This document shows, piece after piece, positions 145 to 64,000 of a stretch of DNA of 64,000 nucleotides. The DNA comes from Schmidtea polychroa (taxonomy: Eukaryota): assembly GCA_044892525.1 (NCBI GenBank), contig CM097885.1, positions 5,024,001-5,088,000 of the forward strand, in the 5' to 3' direction. How positions within the stretch are numbered: position 1 is the stretch's first letter; each line of letters starts with the position of its first letter. Below the pieces are notes generated by a model. That model was not told where the DNA came from. It ran no database searches and was given only the letters and a program-made list of their open reading frames with translations. A program made the position numbers and the translations under genes.

Positions 145-355
<211 letters not shown>

Positions 356-25234: not shown

Positions 25235-27307
<2,073 letters not shown>

Positions 27308-30595: not shown

Positions 30596-30640
30596 ATAAA
30601 AACACCATCTAAAAAACTTGTAACTGAAAATTTCTCTGCA

Positions 30641-31039: not shown

Positions 31040-31042
31040 ACA

Positions 31043-31488: not shown

Positions 31489-31553
<65 letters not shown>

Positions 31554-33184: not shown

Positions 33185-33542
33185 TTCGGATATTATAAGT
33201 ATGTATAGTGGTAGCCAATCTGGCGGTGAATTACCATATTTTATTGGTAAACAGTACGGATCAGGATGGTTGAGAACAATTGGTAGATTTGCACTTCCTA
33301 TTCTTAAACGTATTGGTAGTTTTGGTATGAAAACTGCTAAAGATGTTATTATGAATGAACAGAAAATATTACCATCTCTAAAATCAAATGCTTTAGCAGA
33401 ATTAGGGAAAGTTTTACCCGGGGTTGCAGGTATGTTTCAAAAACCAGCTCCAGCTCCAGCTCATGCTCCAAAACGTAAAAGACATGGAATATCACGTATA
33501 AACAAACGAATGAAAGGCCATGGAACTATATTTGCAAAATGA
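33177..33542 (+). CDS. Core protein with QxGG/QxGxG motifs and an amphipathic helix
   Basis: QSGGELPYFIGKQYGSGWLRTIGRFALPILK and a basic C-terminus. Lies between mCP and MCP, as is typical for Polintons. Confidence 0.75.
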   Translation: MANSDIISMYSGSQSGGELPYFIGKQYGSGWLRTIGRFALPILKRIGSFGMKTAKDVIMNEQKILPSLKSNALAELGKVLPGVAGMFQKPAPAPAHAPKRKRHGISRINKRMKGHGTIFAK

Positions 33543-34762: not shown

Positions 34763-35174
34763 ATGTATACAGAAACACAAAAAGTTATCATGGAGTAAGT
34801 TGTTTTTTATACTCTGGATTTATTTAAATAGTTCTGTTCAGGTCAATAAAATCGGAAAACAGATATTGGGAAATGAATTTGTTGGAGTTTTTCCTCTTGA
34901 TAAAATTCCATATTTGAGCAATAATCAAGCAATAATCGTCAATACTCAATCGTCTCATCTTGGTGGAGAACATTGGATAGCTATATATGTGAAACCTGGT
35001 AATATATTCGTGTTCGATCCTATGGGTTTCTATTACCCAGCTTTGTTGATATCAAAACTACAAACAATGGGAAAACCTATTGTGTATAATAAAACTATGT
35101 TTCAAAATCCTTTGACCCAAACATGCGGTCAACATTGTTAAGCTTGGTTATTGTACAAAAAATTTGATGTTTAA
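34763..35174 (+). pseudogene. Adenain-like cysteine protease; probable 37-nt intron at 34795-34831; nonsense codon at 35139
   Basis: GEHW, FDPMG and FQNPLTQTCGQHC catalytic motifs. TAA occurs where the paralogous copy near 62185 has TTA. Confidence 0.8.
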
Positions 35175-35266
35175 AGAAAAAAAATGTTTAATAAATTTGA
35201 TGTTTAATAAATGTATCCTTTCCTTTGTTGTTGTGTTATTATTATTAATATTATTATTATTATTAA

Positions 35267-35321
<55 letters not shown>

Positions 35322-35682
35322 ATTATTAATATTATTATTATTGTGAAAAATATTATTATTTTTAATTAATTTTATTATTATTCTAATAAATATTATTATT
35401 TGTAACATAAAGACTGCCTTTGCATGAGGCATGCACAGTGCAAGTTAACAAAGGCATGACTAACAAAGGCAGTCACATGTAATTCTGACTGATTTACATT
35501 ACATACATGCATGCGTGTGATTGGTTGAGAGAGTAAAATATTCAATGTATATGTGTGTGTGTCTATATTCTCATTGGCTGGGACAGGAAAATATTCATTC
35601 TCTTTATAAACATTGACAAATCTAAAATTTGTCACAATTATTTCAAATTTTTCAAATTTCGATTTCAATTTTAAAAATCTAA

Positions 35683-37345
35683 ATGGCTAACAATAATAAA
35701 AATGGAATTCTAAGAAATCTTTTGACGACAATGGGTAATTTATTTTATTTTATTTTATTATATTTTATTTTATTATTATTTTAGAACCATTCGATTGGTA
35801 CGATGTAACGGAAGATGACTCGATATTAACAGTGGATAAGATCTTCGGTAAATTTATTATTATAATTTTTAATAAATTATTTTTTTTTTCAATTCAGAAA
35901 ATGCTTCAAATAGCGACGATGATGTCGTCTTTATCGGGGAAAGTAATGCTCCTAATAAGATCTTTGGTAAATTTATTATTATTTTTTTATTAAATTATTT
36001 TTTTTTTTCAATTCAGAAAATGTTTACAATAGCGACGATGATGTCGTCTTTATTGGGCAAACTGATGCCCCTAATTATGCCCCTAATTATGCCCCAGTTC
36101 TCAAAGAAAAAAGTAAATTTTATTATTATTTCTATTAAATTAATTTTCATTTCAGAAAATGTTTTAAATGTTGATATTGACGAAGAAGAAATTAATGTCC
36201 TCGCATCGGATGATGGTGAAATCTGTGAGAATGATGGGCAAATCTCATCGGATGATGATCAAATCTCAGAGAATGATGGGCAAATCTCATCGGATGATGA
36301 TCAAATCTCAGAGAATGATGGGCAAATCTCTGAGAATGATTCCGACATGGAATCAAAATGTAAGAAATATTTATTTTTATATATATATATTTTGTTTTTT
36401 ATTTATATGTTAAATTTGTAATAACTTATTTAAATATTTTGATAAAAAACTTTTTTAAATATTTTAATAAAAATTATGATGAAACTTCTGAAGAAAATGA
36501 TTTTATGATTTATAATGAAAATATACCGAAAAATTATGAAGAAAAATGATTATGTTTTATAAAGAAAATGATGAAAATGATGAATTTATGATGAAGAAAA
36601 TGATGAAAATAGGATGAAAATCAATTATGATGAAAATATGACGAAAATTATGATGAAAATGATTTACAACCAAAATTATGATGAAAATGATTTATGATGA
36701 TATAATGAAAATGAATTATGATGAAGATATGACGAAAATTATGATGAAAATGATTTATGATGATATAATGAAACTTCTGAAGAAAACTATTTTATGATGA
36801 AAATTATTTATACCGAAAATTATGATGAAAATGATTATACTAAGTTTCTGAAAGTTATTATTATCAAAATATTTAAAAAGTGATTACAAATTATGGTTAT
36901 AAATCCTTGTAGTTTGCAATGTGCATCTACAATAGTTAAAATAATAATAATAATATTAATAATAATAATAATAATAATAATGTAGTCTACAGTGAGCATG
37001 TAGCTACATAGTAGTCTGCAGTGAGCATGCAGCTACTTTTCTTTTATATAATAATAATAATATATAAATAATAATTAGACCCCGTCTACAGTAGTTTGCA
37101 GTAAGCATGCAGCTACATAGTAGTCTGCAGTGAGCATGCAGCTACTTTTCTTTTATATAATAATAATAATAATAATAATATAAATAATAATAATAATAAT
37201 ATAAATAATAATAATAATAATATATAAATAATAATATAAATAATAATAATAATATATAAATAATAATCAGACCCTGTCTACAGTAGTTTGCAGTAAGCAT
37301 GCAGCTACATAGTAGTCTGCAGTGAGCATGCAGCTACTTTTCTTT

Positions 37346-37393
<48 letters not shown>

Positions 37394-37848
37394 TATAAAT
37401 AATAATCAGACCCCGTCTACTAAAATCTCTCTAATATTCTATCGAATATATTAACCTATTTTCTATAATGATTTATCATCATTTGTTATTTAATTCAAAT
37501 GAACTATATAACAAATGATGATAAATCCTTGTAGAAGTAACAATTAGTTTCCTATATAGAAAAAAAACAATAAAATTTTAATTTTATTATTTAACAGGTA
37601 TACTATACCCGAACTATTGTCAAACATCAATTGGACATAGTGATAAATGTCATAGAACAATGACAAAATATTACCGAAAAAAGTTTAATTCGGTCAACTT
37701 TTTTATATGCCCCAAATGTGTAACGAGCGAAAAAATAAAATATAGGGAATTTTTTAATAAACATCATAGTCACTTAGGGCAATTTTCGATATCAAAAAAT
37801 GTTTTATTTAAAAAAATAAATAAAAAATTAAATAAAAAAAAAAATTAG
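35683..37848 (+). CDS. Spliced acidic, SIM-rich N-terminal region, probably the 5' exons of pPolB (35683-35734, 35785-35847, 35898-35966, 36017-36112, 36156-36359, 37598 onward)
   Basis: Five consecutive phase-1 GT-AG introns give one open frame. It stops at 37848, in an A-run where a 1-nt shift would enter the pPolB frame. Confidence 0.65.
36982..37340. repeat. Paired quasi-palindromic repeat TAGTCTGCAGTGAGCATGCAGCTA (six variant copies here, two more at 41875-41939)
   Basis: Seen directly; pairs are separated by (AAT)n. Confidence 0.8.
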
Positions 37849-37904
37849 AAAATAATTTACAAAAAAACTTACAAAAAAATTTAGAAAATAATTTACAAAA
37901 AAAT

Positions 37905-40900
37905 TTGCAAAAAAATATTAAAAAAAATAAAAAAAATATTATTAAAGATTCAAATATTAAAAAAGATGCTATTAAAAAAGATACTATAAATATTATTAAA
38001 AAAGATATTATAAATATTAAAAAAGATTCGATTAAAAGACCTGCTGGTTTAATTAAAAATTGCATTCCTAATAAATTATCGCGACCTGAAGTGATAGTCA
38101 TCAGCAAAGATGAATGTGTAGCTTCAACATCGTTTACACACCAAGCACCTATTACACAACACGCACCCATTACACAACAAGAAGTGATAGTCATCAATGA
38201 TGAATGTGTAGCTTCAACGTCTTTGAACATATGCCAAATAGGCGGCTCTTTGTTTGAACCTATGGTAGAATCCGATTTGAACGGATCGCGTAAAACTTTA
38301 AGATTTGATATTAGAAATCAAAACTTAGTAAAAATAGCCCTAACATCAAAAATTGAAGATAGATTAATACAGGAAATAGAAAAGATGGGCAATGTAAAAA
38401 TTCAATTCACAATTTTAATTAAATTTGAAAAAGATGGGGAGATCCGGGATAATTATTTTTCCAACAATGCTCAAGTTTTTACATCAAACTTTATAAACGA
38501 GGGGGTGAGCAAATTAAATGAAAAGATTGAGCAATTCACCTATTTAGGAAGCGGGTGGCGAGTAATGAATATTTTAGAAATAGATTTTATTTTAACGAAA
38601 TACGCACCCGTCAGTAGATTATCCGGACATAGCTATATAAAAACCCCATCAGCATTAAAATTAAAACATGCAATAATTAATGTAAAAAACAACGACCATA
38701 AGTGCTTCTTGTATAGCATTCTTGCACTTTTAAAAAGAGAAGAAATAGGTCGTAATCACCAAAGAGCCGCCAAATATATAGAATTTTTACCTCTATTAAA
38801 TTATGACGAAGACACTGATTGCCCGATGAGGCTATGCAACATTCCCAAATTTGAAAGAAAAAATAGAGATTTAAACTTGAGCATAAACGTTCTGTCTTAT
38901 AATCCAGCCAGTTCTGATTTAGATATTTCTGAGGATTATGTAGCTCACCACCCTCATCTTAATATAGTACATCGCTCCAAGGTTATAGACGGTAGACCAA
39001 TTTATTTATTACTTTTGAGTAATAAAGATAAATATCATTATACAGCCGTGACAGACTTGGACAAATTAATGAATTGTCATGAAAATGAAAATGTAAATGT
39101 TCAAATAAGGTGTAACTGGTGCCCACATTGTTTAAATGGCTTTAGATATAAGAATGCTTTCGATCAGCATGTTGCTCTATGCTGTAAAAATCAGACTGGC
39201 ACAACTTTGTATACACTTCCTAAAAATAAAGATTTATTATTCACAGATTACGCAAAAACAGTTACACCTCCCTTCGTAATTTATGCCGATTTTGAATCGG
39301 TTTTACCAGAACATGAAACATATCATCAAATACATTTACCCATATCAGCAGGTCTTTTATTAATTAATAATTATACACACACTAAATTTTATTATTATTT
39401 TTTTGGACCTAATTGTATTTTGGATTTTTTGAGGAAAGTGGAGGAAATTGCTGTCACAATTGTCCTGCCATATTATGATCTTGAAGGTCATAAAGGTATG
39501 TCTACTTTGTCTTTTGCTCAGGAGCGTGCCTTTCGATCTTCCACTATTTGTTATTTGTGTAAAAAATCTATTATTAATCCTGTGAGAGATCATTGCCATT
39601 TTACAGGTAGATATGTCGGAGCGGCATGTAGGAAATGCAATGTCTCTCGCAGGATTAATAAATTGTTACCTGTTGTCTTTCATAATTTACGAGGCTATGA
39701 CCTCCACCATATTTTAAAACATGGTCTCAGTGATTTTCCCCTTTGGGAACTTAATATTATACCTACCTCTACAGAAAAATTTATATCTTTAATTGCATAT
39801 ATTAACAAATTGCCTGTTCGTTTTATTGACAGCATGCAATTTGTTAATTGTTCTTTAGCAAAAGCTGTGAAAACCTTAACTACTTTTCCTTTGACTTCGT
39901 CTGTCTTTCAAGGGTCGATGATTCACTCTAAAGGTATCTTTCCATATAATTTCGCCACTTCTTTAGATGTTCTTGAATCGACTTTAGAATTACCTCCTAT
40001 TTGGTCTGATGTTACGGAAGATCAGTACGCTGAGGCTCAACTAATTTGGAGTCAGCATAACTGTAATAATTTGTTAGATTATATGTTAATCTACTTAAAA
40101 TTGGACGTATACCTCCTCGCAGATTATTTTCAGCAATTCCGCGGTAAGGCAATTGCTTACAATGGTCTGGATCCTCTTAATTTCTACGGGATTCCCGGTA
40201 TGTCATGGGCCTCAGCGCTTATGACATTAACGGAACCAATAGAACTTCTGCAGGACATGGAAATGTATAATTTCTATGAGGGAGGTATCCGGGGTGGGTT
40301 AACATTTGTTAACAAACATTACACGGCTACTTCAGATGATACAGAATTATTGTACATTGATATAAATAATCTGTATGGTTGGGCTCTTAGCCAAAATCTT
40401 CCGTATGGTGATTTTTCTTGGGTGAATAATAACTTGAATGATGTTTTACTTGAATGTATGAACACGGATATTGATAACCTTCCATATGGGTATACTATGG
40501 AGGTCGATATCGATATTCCGGAATGTGTGCATGACTTTTTGAATGATTTTCCGCTTGCTCCGGAAAAGTTGTGCCCGCCTAATTCAAAAGTTGAGAAGCT
40601 TATGCTTACGCATTGGCCAAAGAGGAACTATGTTCTTCATTGGAGGCTTCTCAAATTGTATATAGAATTAGGTGCGGTTGTTGTAAATATTCATAGGTGT
40701 ATAAAGTTTAAACAAGGACCTATCTTTAAATCCTACATAGACACCAACACCACTTTACGATCTCAGTCTACTAGTGAGATATATAGGGACTTGTTTAAAT
40801 TGTATAATAACTCTCTTTACGGTAAATCGGTTGAAAATTTGAAAAAAAGAATGAATTTGAGGTTGTGTAATTCATCCGAAAAGATGATAGTATACTCCTC

Positions 40901-41654
40901 AAAGCCGACTTTCAGAAAGTCCATAAGAATCGATAACGATCTGATTGCGGCACATTTGGAAAAAGATGTGATTTGTTTAGACAGACCTAGCTACATTGGT
41001 CAAACAGTACTAGATCTGTCTAAACTGCGGATGTACCAGCTCCAATATATTGATTTGGAGAAGTACAGACGCCAATATAAATGTATCATAAATATTATTG
41101 CCGGTGATACCGACAGTTTCTTTTTGGAAATAAAAAATTTAAAATTAACAACTTTATTACCTCAGATGATCTCTGATAATTTATTGGATACGTCAAATTA
41201 CGATCCAACCCACCCCTTGTATAGTAGGAACCTTGACTCGGTCATCGGGAAGTTTAAAGATGAGAGCAAGGGATTAGGGTATTCTGAATGGGTTTTCTTA
41301 CGCCCTAAATGTTATAGTCTTTTAGGTAGTAAGGAAACGGTAAAAGCGAAAGGGGTTAAATTACCAGGGACATCAATAAATCACGAATCATATCTAAATT
41401 GCTTTCATTCAAATCAGGTGATTTCTGTACCGCAGACTAGAATAGGTACTAGAAATCACCAACTTTTTACTTTTAAAAATTCGAAAATTGCCCTAAGTAA
41501 TAATGATGATAAGCGCGCGTGGCTAGGAAAAAACTTAAGTTACGCATTTGGGCACTATTTAGGAGTTGACGAATTAAGCGAATATGATGAGGAATTCGGT
41601 CCAGCTCCAAGTCCCAGTTTTGACGACAGCGAATGGGACGAAGATCAAATTTAA
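37905..41654 (+). CDS. Protein-primed family B DNA polymerase with an EndoVII/HNH-like zinc insert
   Basis: IYADFES, CYLC...VRDHCHFTGRYVGAACRKCN, FHNLRGYD, YIDINNLYG, KLYNNSLYGK, AGDTDS, GKFKDE, LRPKCYS, KAKGV. Confidence 0.96.
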   Translation: MQKNIKKNKKNIIKDSNIKKDAIKKDTINIIKKDIINIKKDSIKRPAGLIKNCIPNKLSRPEVIVISKDECVASTSFTHQAPITQHAPITQQEVIVINDECVASTSLNICQIGGSLFEPMVESDLNGSRKTLRFDIRNQNLVKIALTSKIEDRLIQEIEKMGNVKIQFTILIKFEKDGEIRDNYFSNNAQVFTSNFINEGVSKLNEKIEQFTYLGSGWRVMNILEIDFILTKYAPVSRLSGHSYIKTPSALKLKHAIINVKNNDHKCFLYSILALLKREEIGRNHQRAAKYIEFLPLLNYDEDTDCPMRLCNIPKFERKNRDLNLSINVLSYNPASSDLDISEDYVAHHPHLNIVHRSKVIDGRPIYLLLLSNKDKYHYTAVTDLDKLMNCHENENVNVQIRCNWCPHCLNGFRYKNAFDQHVALCCKNQTGTTLYTLPKNKDLLFTDYAKTVTPPFVIYADFESVLPEHETYHQIHLPISAGLLLINNYTHTKFYYYFFGPNCILDFLRKVEEIAVTIVLPYYDLEGHKGMSTLSFAQERAFRSSTICYLCKKSIINPVRDHCHFTGRYVGAACRKCNVSRRINKLLPVVFHNLRGYDLHHILKHGLSDFPLWELNIIPTSTEKFISLIAYINKLPVRFIDSMQFVNCSLAKAVKTLTTFPLTSSVFQGSMIHSKGIFPYNFATSLDVLESTLELPPIWSDVTEDQYAEAQLIWSQHNCNNLLDYMLIYLKLDVYLLADYFQQFRGKAIAYNGLDPLNFYGIPGMSWASALMTLTEPIELLQDMEMYNFYEGGIRGGLTFVNKHYTATSDDTELLYIDINNLYGWALSQNLPYGDFSWVNNNLNDVLLECMNTDIDNLPYGYTMEVDIDIPECVHDFLNDFPLAPEKLCPPNSKVEKLMLTHWPKRNYVLHWRLLKLYIELGAVVVNIHRCIKFKQGPIFKSYIDTNTTLRSQSTSEIYRDLFKLYNNSLYGKSVENLKKRMNLRLCNSSEKMIVYSSKPTFRKSIRIDNDLIAAHLEKDVICLDRPSYIGQTVLDLSKLRMYQLQYIDLEKYRRQYKCIINIIAGDTDSFFLEIKNLKLTTLLPQMISDNLLDTSNYDPTHPLYSRNLDSVIGKFKDESKGLGYSEWVFLRPKCYSLLGSKETVKAKGVKLPGTSINHESYLNCFHSNQVISVPQTRIGTRNHQLFTFKNSKIALSNNDDKRAWLGKNLSYAFGHYLGVDELSEYDEEFGPAPSPSFDDSEWDEDQI

Positions 41655-41980
41655 ATAGAAAAAACTTTATATTTTTGATTTATAAAAACTTGTATAGTGA
41701 TTTCATGATTTATAAAAAATTGTATAGAAACTTTTATTTAAAAACTTGTACAAAAACCTGTATATTGTATAAAACTTGTATTTATATATACATATTCAAT
41801 AAAATTTTTAATAAGATTTTTTAAGTATTTGGTGTTTTATTATAATTTTTTTATATTTAATGGTGATTTTTATATAGTCTGCAGTGAGCATGCAGCTATA
41901 TGTTTTTTTTTATATAGTCTGCAGTGGGCATGCAGCTATATCAATGAAATAATAATAATAATAATATTAATAATATTAAT

Positions 41981-42053
<73 letters not shown>

Positions 42054-42061
42054 TTAATAAT

Positions 42062-42122
<61 letters not shown>

Positions 42123-42206
42123 CTTTAAACAGGTTGCAAAGGGTACTAGTCATGCTTATTATTGTTATACATTTGATGGTTACATTTTGAAAGCTCTATT
42201 TTGATT

Positions 42207-42632
42207 TTTAATAAATCAATATGTGTTTGTCCGAATACAGCCAAGTTGATGGATATTTTATATATTCTCGATAAACCAAAATGGTCAAAGCATCCAGGAA
42301 AAAGAATATCTCAAAGATTGGAGAATTTAGAAAACAGTTATGAACTAACATTTGAATATATACAAAATATAAAAATTAAATTGATTGATCATATTGAGGT
42401 TTTCAATAACTCTATTACTGAAAATAAAAAGAATATGAAGATTATTGATAAGAAGCATGATTATTTGTTAAAAAAGATTGAATTATTATTAAGAGAAATT
42501 CAAACAATCAAAGGATCAATAGAATATCTGAAAATCAATTCAACGTTACCAATTTCTAACAATAATGCTGCGAATAGAAGTGCATCAATATTTAGTTTAC
42601 CTTTGTTAATTTTACATTATTTTATTGTTTAA
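42207..42632 (+). pseudogene. 5'-truncated TIR copy of the GPI-anchored coiled-coil gene
   Basis: Same protein as 26881-27381 from FNKSIC onward, but without the ATG or signal peptide. Confidence 0.8.
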
Positions 42633-42757
42633 ATAAATGTATGTTTTGTTGATTTGTTGAGCGTGACCAGTACCCTTGTGAGCATTACCCATAGGGGGAC
42701 AAAATATTTTGTCGGATAGACTCAGAGTATATAGACTCGGTGTATATAGATTAATAC

Positions 42758-42916
<159 letters not shown>

Positions 42917-43072
42917 GATATATGGCTCATTCGAAAGGTCTTGGATTGAGCTTTAAAATGAGCTATCGATTATTAATTTTCGTTGGCGGGAACTTTGAAA
43001 AAATTAAATATAAAATAATAATATTTTTAAAAATAATAATAAAAATAATAATATTTTTTAAAAATAATAATA

Positions 43073-43605
43073 TGACCTTGATGAGTCATCGCGATGGCTC
43101 ATATGACCTTGGGAATGACCTTGGATGAGTCATGTGACCTTGAAAATGACCTTGATGAGTCATAGGATGACTCAGATGACCTTGAAAATGACCTTGAAAA
43201 TTTTGATGAGTCATCGGATGAGTCATATGACCTTGAGAATGACCTTGATGAGTCATAGGATGAGTCATATGACCTTGAAAAAATTTTTCAGGGTCAAATG
43301 AGTCATACTATGAGTCATATGACCTTGAAAATGACCTTGATGAGTCATATTATGAGTCACATGACCTTGAAAATGACCTTGATGAGTCATGGTCTTTGTT
43401 TAAATGTCCTTGAGAAATTTTTTTTGACCTTGATGAGTTATATTATGAGTCACATGACCTTGAAAATGACCTTGATGAGTCATCGGATGAGTCATGGTCT
43501 TTGTTTAAATGACCTTGAAAAATTTTATGAGTCATAGGATGACTCATGGTCTTTGTTTCAATGACCTTGATGAGTCATATGTCTTTGTTTAAATTTGACC
43601 TTGAA
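43073..43605. promoter_or_regulatory. Mirror-image AP-1/NR-site array in the right TIR (about half the length)
   Basis: Repeated ATGAGTCAT and TGACCTTGA. Confidence 0.65.
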
Positions 43606-46600
43606 AAAAAATGTACTTTTAGACTTAGAATATTTTTGAAAATCTTACCGACGGGGGGGAGGGGGGGTACTGTGCTAGCGGTGCCCTGTGCCAGCGGTGC
43701 CCAATCCATCTACTGTTGTAATATAAATCTGTACAATACCGTGTGGATATTAATAAAGCTTATCGTGTTCGAGAGTGTTGAATTGTGAATTAATAAACAC
43801 GCTATGGAGTCAGAGTAAAAGTTTGAATTTACAAACATTGTCACCAACCCAATAACCCAACATATCGATACTACATTTAGAATATTTCAATAGCACTGAT
43901 TATGAGCGCGCTTTACTGCCGACTACTTGATTTTCGAATGCGTTAGATTTCTTTACTACATTCAAAAGCATGCAGAAAATATGAAAAGTTTACCGGTCAG
44001 TTAAGAAAAAACAAGTTAAGTATAATACAAAATAGCTTAATGTGGCAACAGAGTTTATTCATAAAACTGTCGGCTGAAATAAGCAATGAAATAAGCCACA
44101 TTTTATCCAATAAACTAAAAGCTTTTTTGACGGTAATGTAATATAAGAATGTCTCGAAATAGTCGCTGGTCGAATTGATGAAATGACAAAAAATTCGCGA
44201 TCAATTTAATCAAACTTAGTCATACATATGAATATCTTTCTATTTGTTTGGTTGAATCCCCACGTATAACTCTGATACTTGCTAATTTTGTTAGTGGCAT
44301 GAACACAGCATTGAACGTAACCGAAGAATTTGTTGGGCTGAGCCGAAAGATAGCTGGGAAATCAGGTTAAACTTAACTAAAGAAAAATAAAAAAATAAAA
44401 TAAATAGATCGAGGAATAAAATGGAATAGAATATAAGAAAAGCAATAATTAGAAAATAAGAATTAAAACAAAAAACATAAAAATAAGAACAATTAAATAG
44501 GACAATAGAATGACGAAAAATAACGTAAAAGGTAGTAGATAATAAGGAAATTAAGGAAAATAAATAAAAACATAATTTTAATAAAGAAAATAAGAAGAAA
44601 TAACCCAAAAACAAGGAAAATAAATTAAATAAATAAAATAAGGCGGTACTCAATTCTGATTGGTCCGCATAAACAAAAAATACCTATATAAGTAAACAGC
44701 AAATTCACTATAATCAATGTTAAACCAAACCAATTATAGGTAAGAATAGTATTAACTATATGAAATAAATGTTAAACCAAACCAATTATAGGTACTCGAC
44801 AATCAGGAAAACCAAACCATACTCAGACGACTACTAGGGACAGTTCTACAGACTACTCATTCATATAACCGATTAGATCAGTTTATATTTCGGCTCAGCC
44901 TTTGGAACTACAGAATTTTTCAAATAGTAAAGTAAGGATATATTGCTGTTATGAAATTTGTTTTGAAGGATTTAAATATTTCTATTATAATAACCTAACT
45001 TTTGAATAAAAAACTTCTCCATTCGATTTCAATTTTTTAATGATTTTATAGTTCATAAATTAATTTAAAGGTTAATGATATATAAATATTTATGTTATGT
45101 TTTGTCATCGAACGTATTGATTATGCTAAAATTATTGGTATTGAGAAACGTGGAGTTGAGGAGACCCACGCCATGGCATGAGGAGCCTTAGGGAGCTCAG
45201 CCGGCGGGTGTGGATCTCTTCAATCACGCAGCTGACGTGGGCCGGAATGTGGGGGCTTCCTCACGGGTCCGTCGCTGAGGGAAATGAAATGCTGCAAGCA
45301 CGGGTTTAAAGTACAGAGGAATATATTCCAATATTGAAAAGTAGAGCAAAATTGAATTGAAAATGACTGAGGTGGCTACAAACTCTTAGTAAACATCACA
45401 CTCTGAAATTTCATCCGACATCAGAAATCGTATATTGACATCAACTGACATTCTATCTTTTAGCAGAAAAATATTTTTCTATCAAAACTTACTGCGTACA
45501 AATAGGTTCATCAAATGCGAAATCGGAATATAGAGAGCATAAATAAAGACTTATTCAACAAATGTTTTGTAGTATAAATATAATTGTCAACAAACGCTGT
45601 AATTTTTCCATTGCTTCTGAAAATCCACGATAGCGGCAACGCGAGGTTCTTTCTATAAACGACTCTTTCGACCAAAATAAGAGAGATTTCTGTTGAATGA
45701 ACTGCTGGGGATATTTCCCGAAATCACAACATCCAAGTAGAAAACCGGAGGGAACTGCACATCGCGAGAATAAAATTCCAACGTTCACGCGCGGTGAGAA
45801 TTACTCATAGAGAACATATTGAATAACTAAAATAATTCTAACTCGCAGTGTGAGACGATCAGCTGCAACCCGTTGACATAGATAGTAAGAAGCAGACAAG
45901 GCAAATCACACGCATTGCCACATATAAATACACACTGACATATGCCGCATGCATCCTTTTCCCAGCCCGCTAATGACGGTGAGAACAAAAATTGAAGCAC
46001 ACGCTCATGACATAATTATCTCCAATAGATATGTATCTTTCCGATTCATGCGGCTAATGATTTCTACGAGTGATTCATGCGTCGTCGGGTGACTGTTAAT
46101 AATCGACTAAATTTTATAGGTTGAGTGCACCAATAGACTCCATAATGAAAAATAAATAAATTGATTTTTAGGATGGGGATAGAAATCTGATCATACGCGA
46201 CTTATTAAAAATCTAATAGTAGCACGTTGATTAAACGGGTTTTCTGAATTTAATATTCAAATATGAGTTACAATTTGGGGCCATTAATTTAAGGATCGTT
46301 CACGCGGTACTGGAGAATTTTGTTTTACGTTTTTCAAAAATAAATACCTGTAGTCGAAAAGCGATGTGCAAAAATGAGCATTAATTACTCAATCATGCAA
46401 ATATTCCTGATTCTTCCTAAACCATTTTTATGGTAAATTGTAAATCTAATGTCCATTACGTCAATACATTCGCGAGTCATTTTTCACGTAAATATTTGAA
46501 AATCTCAGATAACGGTAGGTAATGAATATTTTAAGTATAACCATAAAATTTTGGCAGAGTATTATCCAAATGTTGATTTCTCTTACACCCTAAATAGACA

Positions 46601-52077: not shown

Positions 52078-54212
52078 TCAAATAAATTAACAAATATCTA
52101 AAACAGTTTTAAAATTGATGTGCTAATCTAAGAAAAGAGGACATAATAAAATGGTTAAACGGGACATATAAACACAAAAGGAATAGTAATGTAAAAACCA
52201 CATGGATTGCAAGAGTTAGGGCGTCAATAAAAACTCTACAAAAGAAGCATGGGATCACATTAAAATTTATTACAGAACAGAGAAAGAAGATTCCTAATAT
52301 GAAACAAGCAAACAAAGGACGAAGAATAGGCAGTACATAATGTAGGAAATATGATTACAAGGAATCAGCAAGTCATATCGTCAATCACTGCCTACCAGAA
52401 TAATGGAGTAGGATAGAAAATCACAACTGCATTGTTAACATATTAACGGGAATACTAAAATAGAAAAATATACACTTTGAAAAAGACTCGGTACCTAAAG
52501 AATTAAGCGAAAACTTAACACCCAACTTAGTGGTACACCTCAAAGAAAAAATTATGATCATAGATATAATATGTCTATTTGATGAAGAAGTAGCAATTGA
52601 AAAATCCAGAAATCCAAACATAATTAAATATAAGGAAGCTGCGAAATAAATACATAACAAAACAGAATATCAACAAAATATACACTTTTATCATTTGCTC
52701 CCTAAAACATGGGACATAAGAAATAGTGAGATAATAAGACAATAGGGAAACACATATAATTACACTATGGAAATGAGAAGGAAATTGATACAAACTTAAT
52801 ACAAATGAAATTGATACATGGATCAAGGAAAACATATGACCAACATTGAAATTTCAGGAAAGGATTAGAAAAACAAACGATGATTTGTGGACTCATTTAA
52901 AAGACCACCTAACTCAAACATTAAGTCTGCTTACAGAGGTTGAAGAAGTGTAGGACACTTGATAGGTTCAAATAGCACAATAGGATGACATTAATCCTAA
53001 AAGTGGCTTGCCTACATAACAATAGTAAAACACTCTAATCCTGCGCTTTATATGCAAATTGATATCTAATTAGTTGTGAAATGGGTGAAGGCGGGGTGAC
53101 TTGTAATTGACTAATAACTGGTTAGTGGTAAACTGGTAAACAGCGGCAGTGCAAATATATTTATGTACTTGAATTAGGATAAATTTCGAAATATTTATTA
53201 AGTATATAATAAAAATATCAAGTACTTAGAGTATATTTGTTAATGTAATGCCTGTTTATTGCAGTAATAGACTGATTGAATTATAAATTTAAGGGGACCA
53301 TCCTCTGAAAACTCCTTTTTTCTGGAAGGTTTTGTCAGTTTTTTTCATGGGCCACAAGGCTTATATTAGCAAATAATAATAATATTTTGTTAAATAGTTA
53401 TAATATGCAAAATTAACTCAATTAATAAATAATTTCAAATTGATTTTAATTGTATATTTTATTCTCTATTTGTGGTACTTAATTTAATTTGTAATAATTA
53501 AAATCAAAAAATATTCGTCAAAACGCTAATTAAAAATTATTGATTATTAATATTTTCACTATTAAATGTTGCTGAAAATATTTTTCAACGTAAATTTAAT
53601 ATAGTAAGATTGAGAAATAAAGTTCAACAATGAGAAGGTTTATGATTGCTTCTTTTATAATCAATACAAATTTCTAACAAATATTTAATTTAAATGATTT
53701 TCCATTGGTTGCTAAGGTTATTTTTATGAGTTCAAATAAATATCCAGATATTCGAACTTTATATGTTTTTATTTTTACTTAATAATTATATTCAAAATAT
53801 TTATTTTAAATTTCGAAACAATTTTGTATTTTATTTTCCATCCAAAAATTATAATTTCTGAATTTAAAAATTTTCATGGATTGTTACTATATTTTTTCTA
53901 ATATTCTCAATTTTCCAATTATTGTAAAAAATTAAGTTAATAGTTTTGCGACTAAAATAGTCAATTTTGGTGAAATTAAATTTAGAAATATTATTTATAA
54001 AATGTTTGTTTATCTACATCAAAAAACATTATAAATATTTAAATTGTAAACGTCAGAGGAAATAATTAATATTAGAAGTATGATTTATGAAAGTTTTAAA
54101 ATTTTGAAATATTTCGATAATTTCATAATGTTAAATATAAATATGGAATATTTAATTGATTTATTTTTACAATAATTATTATCAATCAGTAATTTTGTTA
54201 ATTTTAGAAAAA

Positions 54213-55681
54213 ATGTTTGCAAGCGTATGGGAAATGATGAAGAGAAATAAATTTGAATTTGATAATGAAATCAGCAGTGAATTGATATGCAGAATTTGCA
54301 AATGTTTAATGATAAAGGCTTGCAATGCTCCTTGCGGTTGTCGCTTTTGTTCTGATTGCATTGAGCATTATTTGGATGGAAAAGATAAATTCTGTCCAGG
54401 AGCAGCAAAATATTGTCAAGTTCAAAAGATTCTTTTCACTAAAGATGTTTCTGTGGATCACCCAGTCAATTTAAGGATATCTGAAGTCATTGTAAAGTGC
54501 CCAGTGCAAAATTGTGAATTCAAAACCAAGCTGTGCATGATGGAGAGCCACATGAGGGCATGCAACAAGCAGCCAATTAGATGCCCATTCAATAGAATTG
54601 GATGCGAAATGAATGAGGTGGTGATGGACGAAATGAAAGCCCATCTCAATGAGGACAATGAAGGCCACAGCAAATTACTGATTGATCAGATCAGTAATTT
54701 ATTCAATGAGATGCAAGCAATGAGAGATCAGAATATGAAATTGCGTTACGAAATTATCGAATTGAAAGGAGAAATGACGCAATTCAAACAACAATTTGAT
54801 AATATCAATGTAAATTTTATTTGTAATTAATTTAATTGATATTTGTGATTGTAGGTGAAATTGTGCAATATTGAAAGGAAAGAGGCAGAGAACAGAGCAG
54901 AAATAGAAGAATTGAATGAGGAAATGGTGGCATTGAAGAATGAGAATCGCTCATTGAGAATGGAGATGGAGACAAATATTGGATCGATCAATCAAGTTTG
55001 ATTGTTGATTTTATTTGTTATTGAATTGTTATTGATGCAAAGCAGATCAGACAACAAATTGAGGTGATTGAATCAAAATATCAACAGCAAATTGATGAGA
55101 TGAAAGAGAAATGCGAGCAGCGGCTGCAACGGGAGAATGAAAAGGTGATTTATTGATTTATTGAAATGTTTGAATTTGAGATTCAGTTGCAGCTTGAAAT
55201 GGCGAAATGCGCCAATGAAATTCGGCAGATTGAAACAAAATTAGTAAATGAAAAAGATATAAATTACGGATATTTTGAATGGAAAATGGATAAATTTTCA
55301 CAACAAAAGAAAAATGAACATATTTACAGCAAAGCATTTTATTCAAGGCCACTCGGTTACAAAATGTGTGTGGTAGTAGTGATTGGGGGTATTTTGGGTA
55401 TTGTAGCTGGTTTCTGTGTGATGCGTGGGGAAAATGATGATCAATTGGATTGGCCGTTCAAACAATCAGTGACAATCGATGTGATCGATCCAGCAAATGG
55501 CAGCATTTATAAGAGTCAGTCACTAAAATATTCAGATTGCCCTGATCATTCTGGATGGAGGAAATCTTCAAATGACAGAAATGATCCAATTTTCATTTAT
55601 TATCGTGGTGATATCTCAATCTATAAATTAGCAGCCAAAAGTGATAAATTGCTGCTCAGGTGCAGAATTGAAAAATTATGA
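54213..55681 (+). CDS. TRAF-family protein: RING, TRAF zinc finger, coiled coil, MATH (exons 54213-54809, 54855-54995, 55046-55144, 55187-55681)
   Basis: CRIC...CGCRFCSDC RING; CPVQNC...HMRAC...CPFNRIGC...H zinc finger; FEWKM...YSKAFYS...GYKMC...MRGENDDQLDWPF MATH. Phase-0 introns. Confidence 0.9.
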
Positions 55682-55989: not shown

Positions 55990-56300
55990 TGTATGCTTAC
56001 TTATAACCCACCAGAAGGAAGACAGATTTGGCAGAGATACTACCTGAAGTCAAATGTATTTTAAATGCAACCAAACAAAAAACGATAGGAAAATGCTCGA
56101 GAGTGATAGGTTTTAGAAAGAAAATGAGTAGAGAAAATGATACGGGTCAAAGGAACACAATTAAAGGAAGAACAAGTAGAACAAACAAGGAGTGAATTCA
56201 ACGTAGGAGATGTGTTATTAAAATTAGAAACACGCAAAAAAGGCCAGGACAGATATGAGCGTGTATATAAAATGATCGAGACAGTGCAGTATGACAGTAT
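55990..56300 (+). pseudogene. Possible LTR-retrotransposon integrase C-terminal relic
   Basis: W..ILPEV...LNATKQKTIG and FNVGDVLLK...KKGQDRYE-like fragments. Degenerate. Confidence 0.4.
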
Positions 56301-58003
56301 GTCAAATGTTTTACAAATATTTCAACTGAAATAAATATTGAATAAAGATAAAATATAAAAATTAGTTTAACTTTAAACTGTTTATTAAACAACAATAATA
56401 TAAACCTCAGGGGGATTCATGACCTTCTAGAATCAATTAAGATTAACGATATAACATTTCATAAATCATTTCATTATAAAATTTTACAATCTTTTGTTTT
56501 TTTGTTCCAATGATATTTCAATTTTTCTCTCTGGTCTTCAAATTGTTTAGTTAATTTAATTTTTGACAGACGATACATCTTAAGCAACGATCATGGTAAA
56601 AAGATCTGAAGAAACGTGGGAAAACTTAAAAGGAAGATTGAAATTTGTTTAAATAACACACAAATAGAAGATATAAAATATTTGAGTGCATAATTTATTA
56701 AATAAAATTTATGGAGTTATTTAGTAATTTACCAACCGATGTTAATCTTTTAACGGATGAGAATCCTAATGAAATATATTGTGGTAAAGTTTCCATTTAA
56801 TAATTGTTTATTTCAATCAAATATCATCATTCAAAGGTCAAATAAATCATTGTTCAAATTGCCGTTTATATTCCTCAATTGCCTCTTTCAATTGCTCCCT
56901 ATCAATTTTGCCATTGCAGAAAAATTCCCCTTCAAAATGTAAAACTGGAATTTTATCATAATATTTTTGATTATATTTCCAATTTCTCATGATTTTGATA
57001 TCAATCTCATTGAAATTGAGCTGAAATTATTAAATATAATTAAATAAATATTTATTATATCATTTACATCACAATCTATTATATCCTCGATTGTCTCCTT
57101 ACCTTTGATACATTTGTCACATCCTTCTCTCATAAATAAAGTTACAGAAGGTTTCTGGTATCCGATTGAACGAGACAATAATCTCATTGCAAATCTTTCA
57201 AATTTCCAGTTCATGTATTTGTTAATAAATCGTTGATTGATTAAAACACGAGACCTTTCATATAGAACTAAGCGATCCTAAATAGTTTGAAATCATACAT
57301 TTTATTATACATAAATGTTTGCCTGATTTTCAATAATTGATTTGATAAATTTTATTATTTTGCTAATCATATTTTCACATTCAGAAATTCCTTTTGTTAT
57401 AATCATTCAATTGATAAACATTGATAAATAGATATAATAATCATTTCAAATCTGAATATTGCTTACATTGCTTAGTTGGAATGATGCATTGTTACGGATC
57501 CTATGTTAAACCTTCATTGCGAGTAATTGCAAAAAATCGGTTACAATTTGATAGAGCTATTAAAAGTATTCCGGATTCAATTGCAACAGATGTATTTCTT
57601 ACTTACAGACAATGCATAGGAGAGTGCCTGGCGATGGAATGGATCCGCAATCTCACTCGTAAATGTAGCATTATTGTGTTCTAATTTGTCAAGTTCTTTC
57701 ATATCTTGAGGCATCTGAGATAAAATATTCATTCTAGTTTTATTTTTGTTTCCAAATAAATCAACCAATTAAAATAAATTTATTAAGCACAGCAAATGTA
57801 AAATTTGTTCATTTGACCAATCAGAGAAAGTCTAATGGAATATAAAATAATTAATTACGACTATTGAAAACAATACATAATAAAATATATTTTGTCACAC
57901 AATAATATTATGTAATTAAAATTAATTTCAGATTTTAGTGACAAAATAGTAAAATGCTTAAGAATAGAAACGAAAATAGAATATGAAAATGAAAATAAAT
58001 TAA

Positions 58004-58331
58004 CAGCCAAAAGTGATAAATTGCTGCTCAGGTGCAGAATTGAATAATTATGAGAAAATTAAAAATAACATTTCAATAAAAATTGATTTATTTTGGATTT
58101 TATCAGATTTATTATTTGCCTTGTGCTGGTGGATCAATTTGTCTGGATCAGTTATTGATGCATTTGCCCAATTATAAACTGATTGCAACATTATTGATGC
58201 CGTGGATCAGCTGTAACCGCATTTAATGCTGATTGGATCAAATCGGATCAGCATTTAATGAGCTTTGTGCAGATCCATTTATTGAGCTGTTTTGAATCAA
58301 TTTTTATTGTTGCTCGTGATTTTGAATTGAA
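58004..58331 (+). repeat. Near-identical duplicate of the TRAF 3' end and downstream sequence (55632-55960)
   Basis: cagccaaaagtgataaattgctgctcaggtgcagaattgaa...ttgctcgtgattttgaattga occurs in both places. Confidence 0.85.
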
Positions 58332-60735
58332 ATATTTGAAATTTTTCTTTTTTCATTTTTATTCAAAATATTTATTTTCTATTTTGAAACATTTTTAATT
58401 TTTATTTTCTAAAATGATATTATGGCAGCCATGTTAGATTTCTATCAGATTATTTATTTGAATTTATTATAATAATATTGCAACTGAGCATTTCTTATAA
58501 TTGAAGGTGAAAATGCATTTGATAGAATCCCTCGAAGGCCAGCCAAATCATCATTATCATTATCGATAATTACAATTCCATATTTATAATAATGTTGCTA
58601 GGCTCAAGGCAGCAACCAAATTTACACCTTTAGGAGTTCCTTGAAATCTCCACTACATTCCCAACAATAATATCCATAGAAACATTGAACATTTCAACAT
58701 CAAAGCGTTCTCTAGAGTCAAAAGGTTTCTCATTTTCACTGAGTTTATCAAATATTTGAACGCTTTCATTTTACATTTTTTTATGTTTGTCAAATGTTTT
58801 ATTTAAATGTGTTTTTAGGAAAAGAATTTTAAATAATTTTATATTAAAATGAAATCTCAATAAAGCAAAGCGAAAGCTCCTGCCTAACTGAATCAGTAAT
58901 GCATTAGTAGGAATATGGCCAATCGCATTTTTGGCTTGAAATATATTTTTTATTAATTATACTTTATTTTTATATTAATATTTATTTATTTCTTATTGAT
59001 TTATTTTTATGTATTTAATTTTTTTAAGGTGCAGTTTAACAATTCTAAGATTTAAAATTACTAATCTTTTGTTCATAAAGGTTTTCGACAGCAATAATTC
59101 GGTTAGCAACAAGTCGTTTAGTTTCTGACTCACAATTACAAATAGTCACTCGATTTTCACCCTTCTTTAGTAAGCAATCGTTATCGTAAGGTAGGTTGCC
59201 CAAGTGGTTATCACCTGTTCTGGCACGATAAGTTATAATGTTCCCTAAATTTAGTTGAATTACTTTCTCTTCGATTTTGTAAATTCTCGCTAATTTGTTT
59301 CTTCAACCAACTGGCAACTCATCTCTTTCCAGCTTTTCCTTTTGTACTTTACTAAAAGATATTATAAATTTTTAGGCATCCGTTATTTTAATTCTTGTGG
59401 AGATAACTGACATTCTTCTACAGCATTGATTACCCGTTAATTTTAATCTTCTAAGAGCGATTATTTGTTAACGGTCACTCAATTGAGGTCGCTTCAACTT
59501 CGAATTAATCGGGTCTCAGTGAGCTTCGGGTTGATTCGGGAAATATAAAATGTTTTAATAACAAAAACTTAGTCAAAAATATACAATAATCTAGAAATCT
59601 AGAAATTATTTCTCCATTAGCTTGAAGTTTCTTGAATTTCTCGGAAGCGGATTCGAGATCATTGAACGATTTGAGAAATCTCTGACAAATCAACTCATTC
59701 ATACGGCTAAATGTCTTGAATTGCCGCACTATTTCAATTTCTTGACTTGATAGGTTTACCAGATCTTTGTGAGATTCTCCAGTCCATTTGTTCTTTCGAT
59801 TTAAACCTTTGATACAGTCACGAATCATTGGGCATTAACTGAATTAGTTCTTCGATAATGATTGCCCTTGAACAACTGTTATCGTTCGACTGAATTCACG
59901 AACTCTATATGAACCGGGTTACTTGAAGGCAGTTCAATAAAGGCTCCAATTACAGTTAACATTAACAATGATTCAGTTGAGTTGATAATGTCAACATTTT
60001 ATGTCTCTTGCAAATGTTTTGTTGGTGGGAAATTGACAAAAGTTCCAATAATTTGTGCTTTACATCGTTTGATATTATCTGGTCGTCTTGATGCATCTTT
60101 ATAAATGAAAAATTACAACTATTCGATTTATAATAAGGTAAAAATGCCCGAATGTAGAAATAGTTAAAACTGAATCCGAGTTATAGAACTCACACAATTC
60201 ATCTCTTGTTTCTCCATGAAATTTGAGTAATAATTCAGCAGGAAATATAAAGGAGCACAATCCATTTCACCCTCAACTATTTGCCCTGAGCATTCCAATG
60301 TATCTCCAGCAATTGTTACTGTCTCCTCCAATTTCATGTCATCCAACTATTTCACCCTCAACCATTTTCCCTAAGCATTCCAATGTATCTCCAGCAATTG
60401 TTACTGTCTCCCTCCAATTTAATTAACTCGAACCATTTTAATTGTGCTGAAATGTTTTTCCCACGTCATTTTTAATTCCTGAGTTCTGTTTTTTTCTATA
60501 TTGATTTCTGGAAATGTTCAATTCTATTATCGAGGTGCTTTAGAGGCAATTTCATTCAGTCAATTCCTGCTTGAGGATGTTTTAGACAGACTCAAAAACT
60601 CTTGGCGATGAAAACTGGAGAACAAGATCAGTAGGGTAACACGTGGACCCGAGAACAAAGAACTATTACGTAATCGATGACGCCACAACGGAAATTACGT
60701 CTTATCCCATACCCCGGGAAGAGGGGTGTTTTTTA

Positions 60736-61030
60736 AATTACGTAACAAATACATATTGCGTAATGAAGACATATTACACAACAAAGATATATTATGTAAC
60801 AAAGACATGTTACATAACAAAGACATATAACATAATAAAGGCATATCACGTAACAAAGACATATTACACAACAAAGACATATTATATAATAAAGACATAT
60901 TACATAACAAAGACCTAAATTTAAACAAAGGACTATTATATAACAAAGACATATTATTCAAAAAGGCCATAAATCTAAGCAAAGGGCTATTACGTAACAA
61001 AGATATTTTAACAAATACACATGACTCATC
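60736..61030. repeat. 18-bp tandem array, consensus ATATTACRTAACAAAGAC (about 15 degenerate units)
   Basis: Seen directly; ends in an ATGACTCAT at 61021. Confidence 0.85.
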
Positions 61031-61898
61031 ATACTTTTTAAAAATATTACGTTGCGGTATTTTAAAATTTAAATATATTTTAAAAACTATCTGAAAAGAT
61101 ATTCTGTGCCCCTACTCACAAAGGTACTGCTCACAAAGGTACTGCTAAAAATATTCAAGGCAAAACTTTAACATATTATTACACACACACACACAATGTA
61201 CAAAAAATATTATTTAGTGTTCTAGCGGGCACATGGTTTTGATCTTCAGTTTACCTTCATGCCTGAATGTTTACCTTCAGTTTGAATGATGACATTTGTG
61301 AAGTTACATTTGATAAAAATTTGACAAATACACTTGGATTAGAGAAGCAGCAATATCGGGAAAAATCGGCGGGTATACGTAAACCAAGAATACTTGAACA
61401 TCATTAACAAATGTTTATATATACTAACATTATTGAGCCTATAATTGTTGGTGATTCCAGTGTTCCTCTATTGAAATCGGTATGGATTGGAAAATACGAA
61501 CATGATGAAGTTGTCAATATAAATATAGATAATCCTATGTATTTACCAATTTCAAGCTCATGTATAAACAATATAGAAATAAATATTCGTGACGATAGTG
61601 GAAAACTTATAAACTTCCCAAAAGACTCAAAAACTCATTTGACACTACATTTTTGTAAAGTAGATGGCTAATTCTGATATTATTAGTATGTATAGTGATA
61701 GCTAATCTGGCGGTGAATTACCATATTTTATTGGTAAACAGTACGGATCGGGATGGCTAAAAACAATTGGGAGATTTGCACTACCTATTCTTAAACGTAT
61801 TGGTAGTTTTGGTATGAAAACTGCAAAAGATTTGATTATGAATAAACAGAAAATATTACCATCCCTAAAAACAAATGCTTTAGCTGAATTAGGTAAAT

Positions 61899-62214
61899 TG
61901 GAAAACAAATATTAGGAAATGAATTTGTAGGAGTTTTTCCTCTCGATAAAATTCCTTATTTGAGCAATAATCAAGCCATAATCGTCAATACTCAATCGTC
62001 TCATCTTGGTGGAGAACATTGGATAGTTATATATATGAAACCTGGTAATATATTCGTGTTCGACCCTATGGGTTTCTATTATCCGGCTTTGATGATATCA
62101 AAACTACAAACGATGGGAAAACCTATTGTGTATAACAAAACTATGTTTCAAAATCCATTAACTCAAACATGCGGTCAACATTGTTTAGCTTGTTTGTTGT
62201 ATAAAAATTTTTAA
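61899..62214 (+). pseudogene. 5'-truncated adenain-like protease of the second Polinton
   Basis: Highly similar to 34850-35174 and has an uninterrupted C-terminus, CGQHCLACLLYKNF. Confidence 0.85.
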
Positions 62215-63834
62215 GTTTAATAAATGTATGTAATCATATTTGTTGTTCACTTTATTAACGATGAAATTGCAATATTAATGCAAAATATTAATGAGCAATG
62301 CCCTTAGGGGGACAAAATATCTTGTCAGATAAACTTCGAGTATATATAATAATAATAATAAAAAAAAAAAAAAAATAATAATAATAATAATAATAATAAT
62401 AATCACCGCGCACGTTATTTAAAATGAGTTATCCATTATTTTTAAAACATTTTCAATTCTTAAAAGTTGTTGAATTATCCCTTATTTATTGCCCATTACA
62501 CACAGGCACGCATAAAGTCAGTTTTTCTACCCCCTATATATTTGACCTACTTAATTTTTCAAAAATTTTCTAAGTATTTGGAGTTGACCTACTTATAAAC
62601 TCTGAAAATATTTATGTTGATACCTTGAAAATTGTAAAGAATTATTAAATTTCTGAGAAAAACCATAGAAAAATATAAAACTTTCGAGAAAAACTCTTAA
62701 AAACCGTTGAAAAATATAAAATTTCTGAAAAAATTATAAAATTTTCGAGAAAAACTCTTGAAAATCTTAAAAAATTTAAAATTTTTGAGTTGACCTACTT
62801 TTTTTAAAAAAATGTGAGTTAGCGGGCTCCATACTATCTACTTTGGCGGGAAAATAAATTTAACCAAAACTTAAAGTCCTTGATAAAGTTAACTGGTTTC
62901 TTAGCTTATGTTTTTTAAAGTGCATCAAATATAAATGGAAATATTCTTAGAAAATTATTGAAAAATTATTTATTCAAATACATTACAAAGTTATCATCAA
63001 AAATTTATTCTATCACTTACTTATTAACCTAATTGTCAATGAAATTAATTTTTATTTAAAATTAAAAAACTATTCAATAAAATACAACTAATTATCAAGA
63101 AATTAATTAAATTTATCACCATTAAAACCTTAAATTTTAAAATATTCTTTCAGTCAACATGAAATTCTTAGAAAATTATTCAATATCCTCATCAAAATTT
63201 ATCCTATCACTTGATTATTGTAAAAACTATAATTATTAACCTCATTGAAAATAATTTTTATTTAAAATTAAAATACATCCAATTATCAAGAAATTAATTA
63301 AATTTACCTTAGAATTAGCAATAAAACTTAAAATTTTTAAATATTCATTCAATAAACATGAAATTTGCAAAAATGATAAAAATTCACAAAAATGATAGAA
63401 ATCTGCAAAAATAATAGAAAATTACAAAAATGATGGAAATTCACAAAAATGATAGAAATTTACTTGAATATTTACTAAAACTATCAACTCTTAACCTTAT
63501 CAATGAATGCCTTAAACAACAAATTTGCCTAAATAATCATTCAAATAAAAGCATTAAATACCAGTACCTTTATGATCAGTACCCTTGCGACATGTTGAAT
63601 GTGAGTAGTACCCTTGTGAGCAATACCCATAGGGGGACAGAATATTTTGTCGGATAATAATAATTTTTTTTTCACATTTATGTTTAAAAATTAATTAATT
63701 TATTAAAAATAAAATATACAATTTCCTAAGATACCCACACTATATATTTTTTTAATATTTATTTTCAATATTATTTTCAATATTATTTTCAAATTTTTAA
63801 TATTATTTTATGTTGAAAAAAAACTAATGTCAAT

Positions 63835-63875
63835 TGGGATTTGAACCACTGTGCCAGTCTATTCCCACTGAGCCA
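63835..63875 (-). other. tRNA-type Pol III A/B boxes, possible SINE remnant
   Basis: Minus strand reads TGGCTCAGTGG...GGTTCAAATCCC. The spacing is too short for a tRNA. Confidence 0.35.
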
Positions 63876-64000
63876 GCAATCTTAATTTTAAAATTGCTTT
63901 TTCCTATTAAACATAGAAAATTAAATATTCTACTTAAAAACTAAAAGTAGTAGAATATTATGAAAATAATATTTATAAAAAAAATATTTTGACTTGGGAT

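Follow-up and report, generated by a model that had tools for sequence, protein, structure and literature searches.

A tandem array of putative PAR/C-EBP-type sites at a probable Polinton-type end in Schmidtea polychroa

Position 60630 of the window (the whole 64,000-nucleotide stretch of Schmidtea polychroa DNA that was analysed) is very probably the end of a recurrent, multi-copy element of the Polinton type. Judged by its motifs this end is a PAR/C-EBP-type array, related to an AP-1-rich neighbour in the same window (element 1) yet built differently. Our best reading is that each subfamily multiplied its own units, all drawn from one common set of motifs, which would give the subfamilies enhancer-like ends.

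Results

The window and its intact Polinton

The window is AT-rich animal DNA with a GC content of 20-39% in all 1-kb bins except one. Its host genes are split by introns and gave domain matches to PDZ, TRAF and MATH; the PDZ exon, as we take it, resembles flatworm Dishevelled. A TRAF-like gene (zf-TRAF, MATH) lies at 54156-55681 and has a partial duplicate of 345 bp at 57995-58337 that is 97% alike. The intact element has the following main features:

25235-43714, no strand: element 1, a full-length Polinton of 18,480 bp with TIRs of about 2 kb and a 6-bp TSD
25348-26407, plus strand: left motif array of element 1, 1060 bp with 42 TGASTCA, 40 TCAAGGTCA, 5 AACAAWG and 0 PAR sites
43073-43604, minus strand: right motif array of element 1, 532 bp with 19 TGASTCA and 18 TCAAGGTCA
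29041-29101, minus strand: promoter-like region before the ORF at 28596-29006, with a 'scaffold' word, a CCAAT box, an AP-1 site and a TATA within 60 bp

The two ends of element 1 share 12 identical bases and start with AGTAGA. Its genes include TBP, an integrase, a C5 protease and a B-family polymerase. The polymerase matched a PHROG DNA polymerase (E 1e-19) and had 0 matches among PDB sequences, the protease matched Peptidase_C5 above cut-off and the integrase matched Pfam rve at E 1e-5, below cut-off. The TBP-like protein (29840-30277, minus strand; Pfam PF00352, E 1.6e-15) also occurs in several related metagenome loci, and a trinucleotide microsatellite at 31490-31553 lies in frame within the integrase ORF (poly-Ile stretch). 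The 407-aa ORF has 173 relatives, which show the same gene order in metagenome loci, and a DJR-like Pfam match was found in only 2 of the 29 aligned members (E 0.005). The labels major capsid, minor capsid and ATPase in element 1 are our assumption, resting on gene order and on this weak DJR match (2 of 29 relatives). Presumably the ORF at 32129-33184 is the minor capsid/penton; the candidate ATPase ORF had no family match. Each TIR holds an ORF (26881-27381; 42249-42632) that begins with hydrophobic residues and resembles a coiled coil in its middle part; we found no family match for it above cut-off. The ORF at 26881-27381 is also preceded by a CCAAT-TATA pair similar to the one before 28596-29006, and for this latter ORF an atlas search gave no usable match.

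The arms of element 1 couple AP-1 with 58 TCAAGGTCA words, left and right together, a pairing that the initial annotation did not mention. We take TCAAGGTCA to be a site of the NR5A/FTZ-F1/ERR type (nuclear-receptor type), ACAAAG to be a Sox/HMG-type site and AGTAGGTCA to be a ROR-type site. There are no PAR-type sites in the arms of element 1. As the two arrays differ twofold in length (1060 vs 532 bp), such arrays change fast. The window holds 8 copies of the 'scaffold' word TTTAAACAAAGAC: 7 are in the TIRs of element 1 and one is in the internal promoter beside CCAAT, AP-1 and TATA, and because of this last copy the word may itself be a factor site. TGACTCA is given as the TRE/AP-1 word (PMC13513840).

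The relic end and its array

The relic lies downstream of element 1 and is composed as follows:

60630-60743, plus strand: terminal segment, beginning AGTAG, with a lone unit at 60654, ACGT-core words at 60641 and 60695 and a G/C tract
60737-60998, plus strand: 18-bp tandem array with an ACAAAG-type word and, by sequence match, a PAR/C-EBP-type site across each unit junction
61005-61031, plus strand: single AP-1 unit, 23/27 alike to the element 1 TIR at 25358
61087-61146, plus strand: inner TIR block in common with element 1 26794-26845 (58 bp, 74%, E 8e-4), in left-arm orientation
61276-61668, plus strand: 3' gene fragment, equivalent of element 1 ORF 32129-33184 (76% at the nucleotide level, one internal stop)
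61664-61897, plus strand: 5' gene fragment, equivalent of element 1 ORF 33177-33542 (92% at the nucleotide level, early stop)
61897-62214, plus strand: adenain (C5 protease) fragment (Pfam PF00770, E 1.1e-5; 94% to element 1 at the nucleotide level)
62292-62403, minus strand: inner TIR block in right-arm orientation (131 columns, 75% to 42679-42809), followed by a TAA microsatellite as in element 1
62404-62842, minus strand: unmatched outer block with three AGTAGGTCA repeats and AGTAGAT at 62842, a candidate third end type

The relic starts with AGTAG at 60630, and the 18-mer array that the initial annotation described is real. The array consists of 14 in-register units, each exactly 18 bp, at 60744-60995 with 15 junction sites, and the units show a mean agreement of 82% with the commonest letter per column. 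Beyond these units we found a site at 60737 and the lone 18-mer-like unit of the terminal segment (60654), which carries TTACGTAA at 60666. Exact TTACRTAA is present in 5/15 of the array sites (either strand) and once outside the array; TTAYRTAA accounts for 7/15, TTRCRYAA for 8/15 and either pattern for 10/15. Across 60630-61086 we counted TTAYRTAA 8 times, compared to 0.07 per 450 bp in the host DNA of the window, where TTRCRYAA occurs at 0.13 per 450 bp. Octamers with measured binding by human NFIL3 make up 7/15 of the array sites and the optimal octamer only 2/15. The whole relic arm has 1 TGASTCA and 0 TCAAGGTCA, against 42 and 40 in the left arm of element 1.

Two words named by the initial annotation were found as described: AAATTTAAACAAAG, said to be common to both elements, occurs at 60917, 25356 and 43596 only, and one ATGACTCAT is kept in the relic at 61021. 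Both the array and the change of the dominant site are real; the units quoted for them are idealised. The exact array unit AACAAAGACAT-ATTACRTAA has 0 occurrences, and the element 1 unit AACAAAGACAT-ATGACTCAT has one exact copy in each arm; a further 4 units on the left and 3 on the right read AACAAAGACC-ATGASTCAT. AP-1 units of this AACAAAGACAT/AACAAAGACC type are a minority in the arms of element 1, to judge by the 42 TGASTCA and 40 TCAAGGTCA of the left arm.

Kinship with element 1

The inner block and the genes of the relic are collinear with element 1. The arms of the two have only one 27-bp AP-1 unit and the inner block in common. For the AP-1 unit against the TIR we obtained a score of 39, which was reached by 0/280 host stretches and 0/1000 shuffles; with the AT-rich tails included, 21/182 host stretches matched the TIR as well as the relic arm does. 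The outer 115 bp of the relic gave no alignment with the outer arm of element 1 (score 16), and a blastn search (word 7, E 1e-3) with 56001-64000 as query and the whole window as subject returned no match between array and TIR. Three fragments are left of the core Polinton genes, and thus the relic is a defective derivative and not an intact member. The fragment at 61664-61897 is cut by a deletion with which the presumed major capsid gene was lost; other contigs extend into the deleted part (loose ends at 61895-61897).

Within the relic the inner block alone is paired (61088-61114 with 62305-62331). The window holds no matching right arm for the outer arm of the relic, and the 6 bp before 60630 are not repeated downstream in the window; the partner end may lie beyond 64000. 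A TSD that would give an element from 60608 to 62842 (same 6-mer at 60602 and 62843) was set aside, since a flank-like contig extends over all of bin 60546-60623 and the depth rises only beyond that bin. The block at 62404-62842 stands where the outer part of the right arm would be and is possibly a third end type or part of a chimeric relic; it had no significant match to the left arm and no TSD. By eye the left AP-1 unit seemed to match 62404-62450, but this match was dropped because 16 and 57 of 814 host stretches were as good in the control. On the other side of the relic, the flank at 59350-60629 (minus strand) resembles a broken copy of a host-type gene, and a second copy of it, about 87% alike, is present in all four public runs described below. 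The inner TIR block is present once more at 63593-63656 (minus strand), 91% alike to that of element 1 and preceded by AT-rich tandem repeats. This extra block suggests that the region around the relic is a nest of Polinton debris.

Copies of the end in public sequencing runs

Contigs from four public runs (X1, X3, X5 and X7) were aligned to 60000-62330 at 80% likeness. X1 and X3 come from one study, possibly the source of the assembly. In three of the four runs the depth rises more than 150-fold at the end of the relic: from bin 60546-60623 to bin 60624-60701 the mean depth went from 340 to 139,343 in X1, from 118 to 18,990 in X3 and from 158 to 25,683 in X5, summed contig depth not being the same as copy number. 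X7 was without a step (221 to 107), and one of its contigs (367 nt) covers 60643-60819 with 27 differences. A flank-identical contig spans 60382-60655 in X1 and X3 and then ends. The contigs of these runs were presumably built from 31-mers; if so, a stop 26 letters inside the relic fits many insertions that share this end plus a few chance letters of flank.

Other contigs connect the parts of the relic arm in other contexts. At least 4 joints (X1, X3; sides of 26-45 letters) among the 15 listed of 198 connect the end segment with array units in contigs whose spacers differ. By its own terms the initial annotation would have been refuted by an array not associated with Polinton ends elsewhere; in these contigs end segment and array are joined. 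Array units are also joined to the AP-1 unit at at least 4 joints (X1, X3, X5, one also in X7), again among the 15 listed of 198; these joints have short sides (20-33 letters) at the lax 80% setting and are hence weak. No contig of the four runs connects the relic end to intact genes. The claim of a Polinton-type end related to element 1 held up, with the AGTAG start, the kinship of inner arm and genes and the depth step in its favour. In its terminal motif the relic reads AGTAGG and element 1 AGTAGA, each matching 5/6 letters of (AGT)2 (PMC8097293).

Comparison with known systems

Element 1 matches the known Polintons/Mavericks in its TIRs, AGT-type end, 6-bp TSD, polymerase, integrase and protease, and the relic does so in end type, inner arm and three gene fragments. 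Vertebrate Maverick TIRs are given by length (46-1,447 bp) and by their 6-bp end motif (PMC8097293). The available part of that account is without internal host-factor-site arrays or subfamily-specific arrays, whereas the arms of both element 1 and the relic have arrays. Across the titles and abstract starts that our literature search covered, with subscription papers and Repbase outside its scope, factor-site arrays in Polinton ends were not described.

The viral contigs contained no relative of the presumed capsid ORF, and a degenerate pattern of two units matched them 0 times. Metagenome contigs yielded 70 loci with capsid relatives, most of which stop short of the element ends. These loci, mostly without ends, gave no blastn match to either arm, and none of those of at least 4 kb reaches 4 copies per 400 bp for any of the motifs tested, except for the start of locus L059 (by eye). 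Positions 1-260 of L059 (28% capsid identity) show an AP-1 site, seven ACAAAG words, CCAAT and TATA before the first ORF, which is one case. Upstream of the related genes in L002, L006, L021 and L059 there were no clusters of PAR, C/EBP or, except at the L059 start, AP-1 sites.

For the PAR-bZIP/NFIL3/C/EBP site, the array has the same TTACGTAA core and tolerated variants, with the binding figures being those of human proteins: for human NFIL3 they are 0.042 uM for TTACGTAA, 0.18 for TTGCGTAA, 0.52 for TTATGTAA and 1.66 for TCACGTAA (PMC10941009). C/EBPs also bind the TTACGTAA octamer (PMC10941009), and PAR activators and NFIL3 have opposite effects via one site (PMC4629104). As activators and a repressor use one site, the sequence of the array cannot tell which effect it has. 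A vrille orthologue is reported from a parasitic flatworm (PMC8638415). In planarians, Polintons show tissue-specific de-silencing during differentiation (PMC8532177), and the presence of a motif alone is a poor predictor of regulation (PMC10558129).

Three other systems resemble the arrays in part. The subfamilies of HERVH LTR7 differ in factor-motif modules through point mutation, duplication and recombination (PMC8912925). Their partitioning of expression and the needed motif were shown by reporter assay, whereas the Polinton arrays are known from sequence alone; here, moreover, the carrier is a virus-like DNA transposon and the motifs stand in dense tandem TIR arrays (PMC8912925 for LTR7). 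The hr regions of baculoviruses are repeats with many host bZIP sites (CRE, TRE); they function both as enhancers and as origins, and their strength follows the number of sites. They differ in being dispersed in a circular genome as 30-bp palindromes read by the viral IE1 and, in the part of the account available, are without a PAR-type array and not terminal (PMC13513840). Adenovirus, a protein-primed DNA virus, has terminal NFI, NFIII/Oct-1, Sp1 and ATF sites in its ITRs for replication and transcription; yet these ITRs are about 137 bp long, have single sites and are conserved between types, and are neither kilobase arrays nor replaced (PMC5717082).

Discussion

We propose that 60630-61146 is the outer part of a left arm that belongs to a Polinton subfamily with many copies or to a non-autonomous derivative of it, here on a decayed and internally deleted copy. 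Taken as a whole, with the origin and the role of the array included, we give this reading an even chance. The arms of Polintons in this genome would be built by local repeated duplication of short units from a small vocabulary, namely an ACAAAG-type word, a bZIP site and a nuclear-receptor-type half-site. The lineage of element 1 would have amplified AP-1 together with TCAAGGTCA, and the lineage of the relic ACAAAG together with the PAR/C-EBP-type site, keeping one AP-1 unit at the inner edge. Most likely host factors would gather on the arrays, making the ends accessible and boosting internal promoters at a distance of a few kb. The arrays are not the proximal promoters of the outermost genes of element 1, since these genes point outwards and stop a short way inward of the arrays. 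Arrays of different types would be expected to respond to different host factors. The site class cannot name the responding factor, as PAR activators, C/EBPs and the repressor NFIL3/Vrille all recognise one octamer. A broader version, which we put forward as tentative and rather doubtful, is that Polinton ends may be exchangeable, fast-evolving enhancer cassettes, such that related subfamilies with arrays for different factors would divide host cell types or stress states among themselves. Its array types would be AP-1 with NR5A-type sites, ACAAAG with PAR/C-EBP-type sites and possibly a third, ROR-type, at 62404-62842.

How the array arose can be explained in other ways. The initial annotation saw a kept repeat scaffold in which the bZIP half-site had been swapped. 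That the dominant bZIP-type site differs between the arms stands, but the swap on a kept scaffold is not supported: the amplified units themselves differ and TCAAGGTCA is gone too. In its fuller form this explanation lets an AP-1 unit of an element-1-like arm mutate at its half-site and become re-amplified as a PAR-type unit, shifting the subfamily to other cell types. It can point to the outermost unit of element 1, which shares 15 of the first 16 letters with the array unit and is the best match outside the array for the 18-mer profile (19.6 bits, with true units at 8.7-25.5), and also to the one AP-1 unit left at the inner edge of the array. A change in one step does not hold, as about three substitutions, read from the sequence, separate the shared unit from the array unit; no intermediate units were seen, the dominant AP-1 plus TCAAGGTCA units are entirely missing from the relic arm and the shared word was possibly kept as a site in its own right. 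Short-unit likeness can also mislead: an 18-bp repeat at 38134-38181 (2.7 copies, in frame upstream of the polymerase ORF and apparently coding) matches the relic array unit in 33/47 letters, a level seen in 0/1564 controls and equal to the likeness of the TIR unit. We therefore consider the swap unlikely. We judge a neutral minisatellite to be just as improbable, with an AT-rich 18-mer copied by slippage or fold-back and a bZIP look that is incidental and partly decaying by C-to-T and G-to-A changes. It would account for the site columns being the most variable (0.72 vs 0.88 for the rest of the unit), with the changes centred on the CG, which is least kept, and for an array length that varies between the arms of one element; look-alikes of motifs are common as well, any of 22 common motifs being found in 35-40% of random tandem 18-mers. 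But a bZIP-class word arose in only 0.9-1.9% of 20,000 trials with random 18-mers in tandem, and yet both arms are bZIP arrays. ACGT-core words also occur beyond the tandem part (7 observed in the relic arm vs 0.67 expected, 4 of them outside the array), and the arrangement recurs in other contigs.

The remaining alternatives concern what the array is for or what it belongs to. Host factors or an element-encoded protein could load polymerase or integrase at the arrays, which would then serve replication or integration and not transcription. The arrays lie 100-400 bp from the terminus, where protein-primed copying starts; host-factor sites in adenovirus ITRs enhance replication (PMC5717082) and the TIR repeats of Galileo are bound by its own transposase (PMC3688188). 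Against this, no bZIP family match was found among the 12 ORFs of element 1 and 2 further ORFs that were scanned, the 92-94% likeness in two genes is hard to reconcile with entirely different binding sites for a protein of the element and the array words recur in an internal promoter, so that we regard this role as a live but unlikely rival. The end segment and the array might also be a different mobile element that abuts Polinton debris by chance, in keeping with the failure of the outer 115 bp to align with the outer arm of element 1 (score 16), with the lack of a matching right arm or TSD in the window and with the nest of relics around it. The AGTAG start, the shared AP-1 unit, the inner block in correct order and orientation and the joining of array and AP-1 unit in contigs of three DNA-type runs make a chance neighbour very improbable. 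A coding role as a hexapeptide repeat, with open frames of 87-138 codons spanning the array and a minus frame that matches Pfam LED_rpt (E 1e-7), was largely refuted and is hardly credible: the match is far below the curated cut-off (32 vs 59 bits), the synonymous share of unit variants is 2/16 to 5/16 in all six frames, as for random change, and gaps of 1 and 4 bases occur just upstream in other contigs.

We thus favour amplification of different units by related subfamilies. That virus-like or mobile DNA diversifies in this way is in principle already known from retroviral LTRs and baculovirus enhancers. For animal Polintons no virion or trigger is established according to the available text of PMC8097293. 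Dense, subfamily-specific arrays of host-factor sites offer a testable handle on how Polintons are switched on, as expression should follow the matching factor. If the cassette reading is true, the arrays would be the first cis-regulatory code to set the time and place of Polinton activation in animals. Being present in many copies, they could also seed host enhancers or soak up factors. The arrays hint that Polintons may diversify how the host turns them on.
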